From Podospora anserina (Eukaryota): a stretch of DNA of 64,000 bases. The notes under the pieces were generated by a model. It was not told the DNA's origin. It was given only the letters and a program-made list of their open reading frames with translations, and searched no databases. The position numbers and the translations under genes were made by a program. Where the stretch lies: assembly GCA_017654855.1 (NCBI GenBank), contig CM030336.1, positions 4,650,001 through 4,714,000 of the forward strand, written 5' to 3'. Below are positions 57,476-60,157 of this stretch, piece by piece; positions within the stretch are counted from its first letter, which is position 1; each line of letters begins with the position of its first letter.

Positions 57476-60157
57476 ATGCAGAAGAGAACCCAGAAGCCGT
57501 CGACTTACCCACCAAAGGACAACGTTGCAAAAAAGGTGAACAAGTCGATCACCAAGCGCTCTCTACAACCCCCCCAGCATAACAGCAAGCAGAAAACCAC
57601 GCAGAACATCAGTCCAACCACCAAGGACATCAAGCAGAGCAATAACCGGAACTCTAAGCGCAGCAATAATGCTGGCAATGCCAAAAAGCAAGGTAAGCCG
57701 TCCAGCTGCTCATCGCCCGCCCCCCGCCTTCCTGTCACATTTCATGAAACTGATTTTTCCTTACCTAGCCTTGGCCTACTTTGTCAACGAGGTAGAATTG
57801 CCCAATGGCATAACGCACCTGCCACCTGCCACACCCCCCCCTAACTTTGACGAGCTGGGGAAGGCTGAGCCAGCATTTCTATTTCAAGGTTTGTTCGACC
57901 GGCCACCAGTACCGATTCGAATCACTTACAATGAACATCATCAGATGGCTTCATGGTCGACGGAGATCAAACTTCCATCTCCCCATACACGTGGGGAGGT
58001 GTTCCAGCTTCGGCTAAGACGGGGAAAACAACAAGATCGAATGCGCCTGTCTGGCCCTTGGTATTTTCTTTTCTGGCAGACCCTAGTGATGCGGACGCAC
58101 CACTCAAGAGCAAAATCGCCATAGTCCGAGAGAAACGGTCGGACGAGGGAGAAGTCGTCAACAAAGTAAGTACCTATAGAGCTCCCTATTATGCACTCCG
58201 TTTGTGTTGACCGTTTTACCAGGATTACTCTTACAGCTTGTTCACGTATGGGGATGCTTCTCAAGAGTCAAGCCTCAAATACGTGTGCTCTGGAAGCCGC
58301 CAGTCTGTCAGTCCAGGTGGTCACCTGATAACCAATACCTTCATCCCGCTCGAAATCTTGAACACCAGGCTCTGCGGTGATTGGCCAGAGCGCCAGCAGG
58401 CATACATGAGAGACTGGCTGACGTTTTGCGGTTATATTGTCGGCCTCGAAGCGGAAAGACCCCCTAACGAACGACGCCACCCCAAGAACTTCTTGCCAGA
58501 TGCCCTTTTGCCCCAGTATCAGAACCTTGAACACCTGAGAAGCATGCTAGTGGACTGGAACGGATCGCACTTGGTAGCCCGGGACAGTGCCGGGAACATC
58601 TCGAACATCGGCGCCAAATTCTTGTACGAACTGTTATTCGACAACAATATGCAATTGATGTCTGCGTCGAATCTAGCAAGGCATATTTTCAAGAGGTGGT
58701 GCCGTATGTCCAACCTGGAAATCTTCAGCCCCCTTTTCAGTGCTAACACAGCTGCAGTTGTTGCTCATAGCGCCGCCTCCTTGGCAAAGGAACCATTCTC
58801 TGTCAAGGCGCGGTACTGGAAGATTCCCAAAGACGTCATTTTGGTCGACAGAGTGGTGCTGGTGTATGACATGGTGCCTGGATTGTGGTTGTGGGACGTC
58901 CACAGTACAATTCTGGACGATGACAAACTCTCTGAGGGCCTGAAAAAGGTTTTGAAACTTTTCTGCGATGTCAACCACAGGAGTCAAGTCAGGGACCTTT
59001 GGCGGGAATTCATGGCTTTAGTTCTTAAAGCACATGCAGCCCCCCCTGACACCGCGCAGCCCATAACAGCCCGACTCCTACGCCCCGACGACAACCTGCA
59101 GCATATGGTACTACTTGGTTCTCATCCTCAAGGCTACTACAACACGTACATTCGGAGAGATCATCTGGCATCGTTAATTTCGAATGGTTATACATGGGGT
59201 AAGGGCCGTCTATTTCCCGAGCGTTTATCGCTTAATCAAATCGTGCCTTTGCCTAAAGGCCAAAGACTAACACAAGCGAATGACTTTCAATGTACGACAA
59301 CGACGATTTCCAACACAAACATCAAGATTGCAGGCAACTGGCCCAGGATACGAACTCAGAATGCTGTCATGGAGAATGTTAGTGCGAACGAGGCAAGCCA
59401 CCTACCTACATGCATCTCCCATCGCCACCCAGACATGGCTAACTCGGAATAGATCGCCTCTAACATATGGCGCAATGACCCTACATTGGGTCCACGGTCA
59501 GCCGAGGTAGGCACTCCCGGTCGGGAAAAAGGGAGAGGAGACTGCTATGACAACAGAAACTAACACCCCGTGACCTAGTGGCTTCATCGCTCTGCTTACT
59601 CATTTGGAGGCAGCGGCAACCCAGACTCGGCACAAGAGCCGGAAAACCTGGTCTTTGGGACATTTGAGGCAAACACCGAGATGCTCAGGTTGGCAGCCCG
59701 GACTTCCTTGTCACTTCCGCACAGCCCGAGTATCAATGCTGACAGGTTCTGCAGATTCGAGTCGTATCTGAAGCGAATCGCCGACGAGGGTGGAACGAAG
59801 GTGATCCTGGAAACTGAAGTGAAACGGGACAACAGCCGACTCGGCGGTGACAAATATGTACGATGGCTCACGCCGCAACTCTTTTACCGGTGGTACCTTG
59901 ACCTCAACCAGATCTGCGGCTTCCAGGCCCTGAATAACGCGCAGGATGTAGCACGGGCAGTCAGCAGAGACAAGACTTTCAACCTCTTCTCTCGGGGCCA
60001 CCCCATGCTGTTCGAGGTGGAGGTCGATGAGACTTTTGATGGGATGCTGGCAACCGCATCAGAAGATATCAAAATCTTAGTGGCCCTGTTTCTCTTCTCT
60101 CAGTCCGGGCTGGCGGCTGCTTACACCATCAACACCATGATACCGAGCCGACTCTAG
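57476..60157 (+). CDS. 764-aa, 7-exon protein with basic N-terminus and C-terminal HNH/beta-beta-alpha-metal nuclease-like domain
   Basis: Introns 57693-57768, 57889-57944, 58166-58222, 59393-59452 (GC-AG), 59507-59578 and 59689-59754 give an open 2295-nt frame. Spliced motif AEWLHRSAYSFGG..QEPENLVFGTFEANTEMLRFE. Confidence 0.75.

Follow-up and report, generated by a model that had tools for sequence, protein, structure and literature searches.

In the classification of His-Me finger nucleases given in PMC5714182, EndoG, EXOG, CPS-6 and Nuc1 stand together with the Serratia nuclease and Anabaena NucA as group 5, which corresponds to the families PF01223 (Endonuclease_NS) and PF13930 (Endonuclea_NS_2). 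The active site, as described there, has a near-invariant catalytic His that ends the first strand of the finger, an Asn from the interstrand loop, and a metal-binding Asn or His located in the helix's first turn; an acidic residue or a His precedes the catalytic His, a polar residue lies further along the helix, and in the EndoG/NucA group the catalytic His is embedded in a DRGH motif. The same source describes how bacterial polymorphic toxins and injection systems carry this nuclease clan as a C-terminal 'warhead' behind a long N-terminal part. In Podospora itself, the SPOK proteins join a PD-(D/E)XK nuclease to a kinase domain, according to PMC6660238. Here we analyze a gene of Podospora anserina that shares features with each of these systems. 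It lies on the forward (+) strand at 57476–60157 of a stretch of 64,000 nucleotides (hereafter the window; GenBank assembly GCA_017654855.1, contig CM030336.1, positions 4,650,001 to 4,714,000), and all coordinates below are positions in that window. We give a probability of about 0.6 to the reading that this is a transcribed gene with seven introns, encoding a 746-residue protein of a fungal family, and that the protein has a His-Me fold in its C-terminal part and would act as an intracellular, metal-dependent nuclease, perhaps with a role in conflict.

The gene is real, transcribed and spliced. The open reading frame (ORF) fragments between 57476 and 60157 sit in differing frames, and the preliminary description of the locus, made from the letters alone, had joined them into a protein of 764 residues by removing six introns (57693–57768, 57889–57944, 58166–58222, 59393–59452, 59507–59578 and 59689–59754). 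From the ATG at 57476 to the stop codon at 60155–60157, this removal does leave a single open frame of 2295 nucleotides (nt), or 764 codons with a lone terminal stop, and the C-terminal peptide pieces quoted at the time are present exactly in the list of ORFs. The number of introns and the length of the protein had to be revised, however, because contigs from four public runs (X1–X4), aligned to 57300–60400, show an additional intron at 58704–58757, which makes seven introns and a protein of 746 residues. The runs are archived only as 'RNA? (a guess)', and the spliced form of the contigs is itself the evidence for complementary DNA. Joints between exons, the check asked for in the preliminary description, were found in the contigs for five of the seven introns and are absent for the other two, 57889–57944 and 59507–59578, which are supported by homology. 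Intron lengths range from 54 to 76 nt, the donors are of the fungal type, and the branch sites resemble CTRAC.

In the first half of the gene, exon 1 (57476–57692) runs from the start codon through a lysine-rich, hydrophilic N-terminus of 72 residues and is covered by contigs at 57300–57573 and 57592–57690. The first intron (57693–57768, 76 nt, GTAAGC..TAG) is exactly deleted in a contig of X3, with a reported joint of 57690>57767 whose cut was moved by +2, and exon 2 (57769–57888) follows by frame continuity and by an X3 contig at 57767–57830. The intron after it (57889–57944, 56 nt, GTTTGT..CAG) has no RNA cover, the contig-free parts of the gene (57924–58131 around this intron, plus others) being uninformative either way; we place it from frame and homology, as it links the frame of 57540, which meets a stop at 58124, to that of 57935. 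The exon thereby gained, 57945–58165, contains the 'GF.V' block conserved in the family's N-terminal region and is backed by the alignment and by tblastn matches of the homologues P0010 and P0008, which begin at 57947 and 57935. The third intron (58166–58222, 57 nt, GTAAGT..CAG) is deleted in X4 (joint 58165>58223). Next comes a long coding region which the additional intron divides into exon 4a (58223–58703), aligned with homologues over the motifs NTFIPL..RLCG, DWLTF and IFKRWC and encoding the first half of a domain of unknown fold, and exon 4b (58758–59392), which according to alignment and model holds the remainder of that domain and, with LGSHPQGYY and WPRIRTQNAVM, the start of the nuclease-like fold. 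The dividing intron (58704–58757, 54 nt, GTATGT..CAG, branch site GCTAAC) is in frame and precisely deleted in a contig of X3 (joint 58703>58758); its 18 read-through residues face gaps in the homologues, and the two Podospora proteins P0002 and P0003 read RWC|LVAH at this place.

The second half is split into smaller pieces. The intron at 59393–59452 (60 nt, GCAAGC..TAG, branch site GCTAAC) is of the GC-AG type and is deleted in a contig of X1; the joint, 59390>59451, can be shifted by two letters that fit both sides, so that the reported ends of AG..AT are fitted equally well by GC..AG. A small exon of 18 residues, IASNIW...RSAE, follows at 59453–59506, covered by an X1 contig (59451–59506) and carrying the family pattern SA.E.A..W...AE. 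The intron behind it (59507–59578, 72 nt, GTAGGC..TAG, branch site ACTAAC) is the second that shows no joint, the alignment of the X1 contig ending at 59506 with five letters unplaced; if retained, it would introduce an in-frame stop (ORF 59453–59563), and its removal restores the family-invariant AEWLHR. The exon at 59579–59688, placed by alignment and model, encodes the predicted beta-beta-alpha core with WLHR and two Asn, and an intron of 66 nt (59689–59754, GTTGGC..CAG), in frame and free of stops, then splits the core helix after M-L-R. This last intron is again deleted in X1 (joint 59685>59752, cut moved by +3); its 22 read-through residues face gaps in all 18 homologues that cover the site, and the phmmer matches of the last ORF break into two stretches, 1–38 and 58 onwards, around it. 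The last exon (59755–60157), within contigs at 59752–60267, carries an invariant Glu, the beta-sheet, the C-terminal helices and the stop codon. The contigs also differ from the window at a few positions: X1 and X4 read A A where the window has G G at 57417–57418, in the 5' leader, and X4 reads T for C at 58273, probably strain differences.

When the last ORF was compared by phmmer with 1.84 billion representatives, clustered at 50% identity, 36 matches were returned at E ≤ 1e-3, ten of them at E ≤ 1e-10. Six of the 36 are fragments of at most 106 residues; the other 30 were looked up, and each of the 22 that carry an organism name is from a fungus, Ascomycota or Basidiomycota. Among the former, the Sordariomycetes are represented by Fusarium, Clonostachys, Xylaria, Nemania, Astrocystis and Hypoxylon, with Arthrobotrys and a Trizodia metagenome-assembled genome from elsewhere in the phylum; the Basidiomycota are represented by Paramarasmius, Rhizoctonia, Mycena, Epithele, Somion and Botryobasidium. 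A single Paramarasmius genome supplies four distinct representatives, of which two share a contig, and several diverged copies occur also in Mycena. The family is thus small, known only from fungi and unnamed in the libraries searched.

The middle exon is matched by proteins of two further Podospora species, Podospora pseudoanserina and P. pseudocomata (P0002, 57% identity, E 4e-133; P0003, 55%). Both, as well as a fragment from the Joint Genome Institute (P0005), end a few residues past 'SANE/Q': their annotations continue into what corresponds to the GC-AG intron, and because of this the Podospora relatives are without the C-terminal nuclease domain. In P0002, what corresponds to exon 3 is mostly skipped as well. 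P0028 and P0009, ORF-type predictions from other assemblies, have unrelated insertions directly after the 'M-I-R' of the catalytic helix, at the place of the 66-nt intron of the window; an intron that interrupts the active-site helix thus seems to be conserved in position. A different architecture is seen in P0040 from Epithele typhae (2044 residues), in which the nuclease-like domain lies near the N-terminus (residues ~333–479), ahead of ~1500 residues with a long stretch that is rich in Ala and Glu and resembles a coiled coil.

The fold of the C-terminal part was approached with AlphaFold models of the homologues P0006 and P0010. P0006 (172 residues, 51% identical to the last ORF of the window; modeled from an alignment of 26 rows) gave a mean predicted local distance difference test score (pLDDT) of 82 and a predicted template modeling score (pTM) of 0.73. 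By DSSP, the model has a strand at 28–32 (AEWLH), a long loop, a second strand at 57–61 and a helix at 62–79, that is, a beta-beta-alpha unit, with three long strands and a pair of helices after it. In a Foldseek search of the PDB, the top 31 rows shown (ranks 1–38, with 46 printed) are EXOG, EndoG, CPS-6, the Serratia nuclease and ENPP/autotaxin, with a best E of 1.6e-3 at a probability of 1.00 and template modeling (TM) scores by query of 0.37–0.46; EXOG and EndoG rank first for this isolated domain, and the first match in BFVD is a DNA/RNA non-specific endonuclease. For the full-length model of P0010 (719 residues, pLDDT 76, pTM 0.75), the 46 rows shown all belong to EXOG, ENPP, autotaxin or snake-venom phosphodiesterase, aligned over 193–275 columns per row apart from one of 609. 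ESM Atlas, queried with P0015, placed on top clusters that carry PF13930 and PF01223 (score 0.93, 174 shared features), with structure rows of the same families at TM < 0.5. In the homologue models, the C-terminal ~250–300 residues are supported as a His-Me (beta-beta-alpha-metal) finger, apparently within a larger beta-sheet, and the preliminary description, which had read such a nuclease from the motif, finds agreement in these models, in the Foldseek search that it had proposed, with NUC-type nucleases returned, in the ESM Atlas leads and in the invariant His, Asn, Asn and Glu. Its label 'HNH-type' names the right superfamily and the wrong branch, the models pointing to EndoG and the Serratia nuclease (NUC) and not to classical HNH.

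The residues of the predicted active site are strictly conserved. Among the 17 full-length members, in the numbering of P0010, the invariant positions are R507, Q511, M515, E537, W538, L539, H540, R541, A543, S545, G547, G548, Q562, N566, G570, N575, T576, M578, R580, E582, W615, Y622, E654 and D658, and the family motif EWLHR...NL...EAN..M.R.E keeps its His, both Asn and Glu in all 17. In the 746-residue protein of the window, the equivalents are Glu576, His579 (59585–59587), Asn599 (59645–59647), Asn608 (59672–59674), Arg613 and Glu615 (59759–59761). Set against the site as described in PMC5714182, the His ends strand 1 in both models (H32 of strand 28–32 in P0006, H540 of strand 536–540 in P0010), one Asn directly precedes strand 2 (N56 and N566), and the other lies in the helix (N65 in helix 62–79, N575 in helix 572–592); the Glu further along stands at +7 from the helix Asn, compared with +4/+8 in that source. 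In the models, H540, N566, N575, E537 and E582 fit the published His-Me site. A departure is EWLHR, present in every aligned member in the place where the source has DRGH for the EndoG/NucA group. Because of this replacement, we place the proteins in a divergent family of their own, new within the known His-Me superfamily and with a predicted NUC-type architecture, and not in PF01223 or PF13930.

Beyond the nuclease-like part, the protein is less easily read. The 72 residues of exon 1 hold 14 Lys, 4 Arg, 2 Asp and no Glu and show no hydrophobic or signal-peptide-like stretch (maximum 9-residue Kyte–Doolittle value −0.14), just as the preliminary description had it. They contain a single, loose bipartite-like basic pattern, and the basic N-terminus of one relative weakly resembles the importin-beta-binding domain (E 0.0096, which misses the cut-off of Pfam); in the alignment, such a basic tail is absent from other family members. 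Nuclear targeting is possible on this evidence. In the model of P0010, residues ~50–400 form a beta-rich and then a helical part, with the conserved motifs NTFIPL, DWLT, IF.RWC and V.ARFW in the middle region; our searches returned no recognizable relative of this region, and none of the Foldseek rows shown for P0010 accounts for the first ~400 residues. An unknown middle region of ~450 residues had been proposed at the outset. The region is there, and we now put it nearer to 330 residues because the fold appears to start further upstream than the last 250: Foldseek aligns 193–275 columns, and both models have beta strands before as well as after the finger. The nuclease-like fold appears to begin near LGSHPQGYY, and the strands of LG.HPQG.Y ahead of WPR...Q.AVM are probably part of the nuclease-type sheet already.

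Of the described systems, the protein resembles the EndoG/NucA group in its predicted finger, apparently set in a larger beta-sheet, in the His ending strand 1, the Asn before strand 2, and the Asn of the first helix turn with a conserved acidic residue beyond it, and in the leads from ESM Atlas. It differs from that group by the lack of similarity at the level of hidden Markov models (HMMs), by EWLHR in place of DRGH, by the ~400 residues ahead of the fold (the lysine-rich tail and the beta-plus-helical region), and by its occurrence in scattered fungi only. In bacterial toxin modules, Endonuclea_NS_2 is fused to Rhs, FhaB, type VII secretion system or extracellular contractile injection system (eCIS) parts, and the ESM Atlas clusters likewise pair eCIS_core with PF13930; in contrast to these, the gene of the window is eukaryotic and bears introns, and it has neither a secretion or delivery domain nor a recognized immunity gene as its neighbor. 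With classical HNH proteins (PF01844 and relatives) it shares the superfamily and a linear motif, E..H......GG...NL.......N, but there is no Pfam HNH match and the structural neighbors are of the NUC type, not colicin-type or homing HNH. Like SPOK, it is a fungal protein that apparently stays inside the cell, is predicted to include a nuclease and is about as long; its distribution is likewise patchy and its host Podospora-related. A Spok identity was considered and rejected: SPOK consists of a PD-(D/E)XK nuclease and a kinase (PMC6660238), whereas a His-Me finger is predicted here and the Pfam scans contain neither kinase nor PD-(D/E)XK. No drive phenotype is known for the gene.

Several observations weigh against the reading of the protein as a nuclease of this kind. 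The evidence for the fold comes from models of homologues and not from the protein of the window itself, the Foldseek E-values are modest (~1e-3 to 1e-1) with TM scores below 0.5, and ESM Atlas gave no usable match when queried with the last ORF of the window; in all, the fold evidence is consistent rather than decisive. The DRGH motif, characteristic of the EndoG/NucA group in PMC5714182, is absent. Nor do the searches of Pfam, NCBIfam, PADLOC and the PDB connect the protein with a nuclease family at the level of sequence: in Pfam, the exons of the window had no match at E ≤ 1 and nine full-length homologues had nothing relevant at E ≤ 0.1, and 26 members searched at E ≤ 10 produced a single PF13930 match, at E 0.11; the family HMMs of PF01223 and PF13930 gave no match at their curated cut-offs, NCBIfam and PADLOC gave none for the family, and profile searches of PDB sequences returned zero matches at E ≤ 10. 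The 55–57% identity to the Podospora proteins, from which divergence is argued below, may be one between paralogues. Finally, the runs behind the contigs are only guessed to be RNA, and their depth is low, ~2–6. In the open-access literature, nothing was found on a His-Me finger in Podospora or tying a non-specific endonuclease to fungal heterokaryon incompatibility, and the papers found on PF13930 in fungi are, from the portions accessible, apparently not about this family.

The surroundings of the gene are mostly ordinary. A short-chain dehydrogenase gene (adh_short, E 2e-36) lies on the opposite strand at 60806–61630, between the nuclease gene and an AT-rich block at 62500–64000 that reaches the end of the window. 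With a GC content of 0.38, TpA/ApT of 1.87 and (CpA+TpG)/(ApC+GpT) of 0.54, this block is of the type left by repeat-induced point mutation (RIP). The preliminary description had noted that the gene sits close to a RIP block, and the distance proves to be ~2.3 kb, with the dehydrogenase gene in between. The upstream ORFs at 55229–55960 (+) and 52448–54151 (−) have no Pfam or PDB match, and no neighboring immunity gene was recognized. Further away, a frame of 961 codons at 45983–48868 (+), with GC of 0.60–0.69, encodes a subtilase (Peptidase_S8, residues 126–368, E 2e-11) and has ~590 further residues without a Pfam match. A milder AT-rich stretch at 12001–16000 (GC 0.43–0.44, TpA/ApT 0.89–1.14) may be an older relic affected by RIP.

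The nuclease-like domain may have lost its activity and serve as a module for binding nucleic acids or for scaffolding. The nuclease-like domain of ENPP/autotaxin is non-catalytic, several of the matching structures are of such a kind, and these are among the best Foldseek matches of the isolated domain and dominate those of the full-length model; the missing DRGH points the same way. Yet all 17 full-length members, from Ascomycota as well as Basidiomycota, keep the His, the two Asn and the Glu, which is hard to account for without catalysis, and EXOG and EndoG come first for the isolated domain, so that we consider a non-cutting module unlikely. Were the protein instead a Nuc1- or EndoG-like housekeeping enzyme, a nuclease of mitochondria or of repair, the fold class would be as predicted, and its basic N-terminus might in principle serve as a targeting peptide. 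Mitochondrial presequences, however, are amphipathic and rich in Arg, and this N-terminus is rich in Lys and hydrophilic; a housekeeping enzyme is also difficult to reconcile with the lack of a PF01223 match at E ≤ 1 and of DRGH, with 746 residues that include a large extra region, with only 36 representatives, from scattered fungi, among 1.84 billion proteins, and with nearest named relatives that are just 55–57% identical. Such a role seems very improbable.

The patchy range, the diverged copies within one Paramarasmius genome and in Mycena, the high divergence from the Podospora relatives and the RIP-mutated block 2.3 kb away would all suit a protein that belongs to a mobile or selfish element, be it a homing-type or transposon-borne nuclease or the toxin half of a driver. 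On the other side, the gene has seven spliceosomal introns and ordinary neighbors such as the short-chain dehydrogenase, no boundaries of an element came to light, no direct or inverted repeats flank it within 54000–64000, and tblastn found no second copy in the window. It is not RIP-mutated either (TpA/ApT 0.69, (CpA+TpG)/(ApC+GpT) 1.26), and six DNA-like runs from three studies contain 99–100% of the sequence words of the window, with no absence polymorphism seen among them. We are accordingly doubtful of a mobile or selfish origin. An even more distant possibility, a domesticated viral gene or endogenous capsid-like element, is suggested only by the UniRef name 'Capsid protein', given to P0015 and P0031 from Paramarasmius palmivorus; NCBI calls these hypothetical, and nothing was found in the open-access literature on a capsid in this species. 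No capsid appears among the Foldseek PDB rows shown or the BFVD rows of the C-terminal domain, the middle domain not having been searched alone against viral structures; the PDB profile searches gave zero matches, no coat family was found in Pfam, and a scan of IMG/VR yielded 42 pattern matches of which tblastn confirmed none. We regard a viral origin as extremely improbable.

Under the nuclease reading, the protein would be a sequence-non-specific endonuclease of DNA or RNA dependent on a divalent metal. In this role, His579 would serve to activate the water for attack, with Asn608 as the presumed ligand of the metal, and the invariant Arg and Gln of the upstream WPR...Q may help in binding the phosphate backbone. 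The basic N-terminus and the absence of a signal peptide hint that the protein works inside the cell, and the ~330-residue beta-plus-helical region before the nuclease fold might target or restrain the nuclease. We suspect that its function lies in conflict, be it recognition of self and non-self, a selfish element or defense against such elements, and not in housekeeping, because the family is patchy, multicopy in some species and, in Podospora, diverged to 55–57% identity, and because the nuclease clan serves as a toxin module in bacteria, in part according to PMC5714182. The resulting picture of conflict-type biology, weakly inferred, is probably the right one. A fuller scenario would have an intracellular nuclease 'warhead', restrained by its own N-terminal and middle regions, employed against invading nucleic acids, for spore killing, or in allorecognition or cell death; the divergence within Podospora would then reflect diversifying or balancing selection as at the het loci, and the true range in fungi would be underestimated since a GC-AG intron and short exons hid the warhead from annotation. 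We consider this scenario, taken as a whole, speculative and rather unlikely.

Overall, if the domain does cut nucleic acids, the family would be a fungus-specific branch of the His-Me finger nucleases, with EWLHR and not DRGH as its signature and with a large partner region of unknown fold. Searches of predicted proteomes miss or truncate it, since the annotated Podospora relatives break off at the GC-AG intron, and P0028 and P0009 seem to continue into the helix-splitting intron; judged from these sequences, this is a gene family hidden from annotation by a GC-AG intron. The fungal group in which it was found is known for its incompatibility and spore-killer genes, and a patchy, diverged and seemingly intracellular eukaryotic version of a nuclease used in bacterial toxins would be a reasonable candidate for a conflict system.

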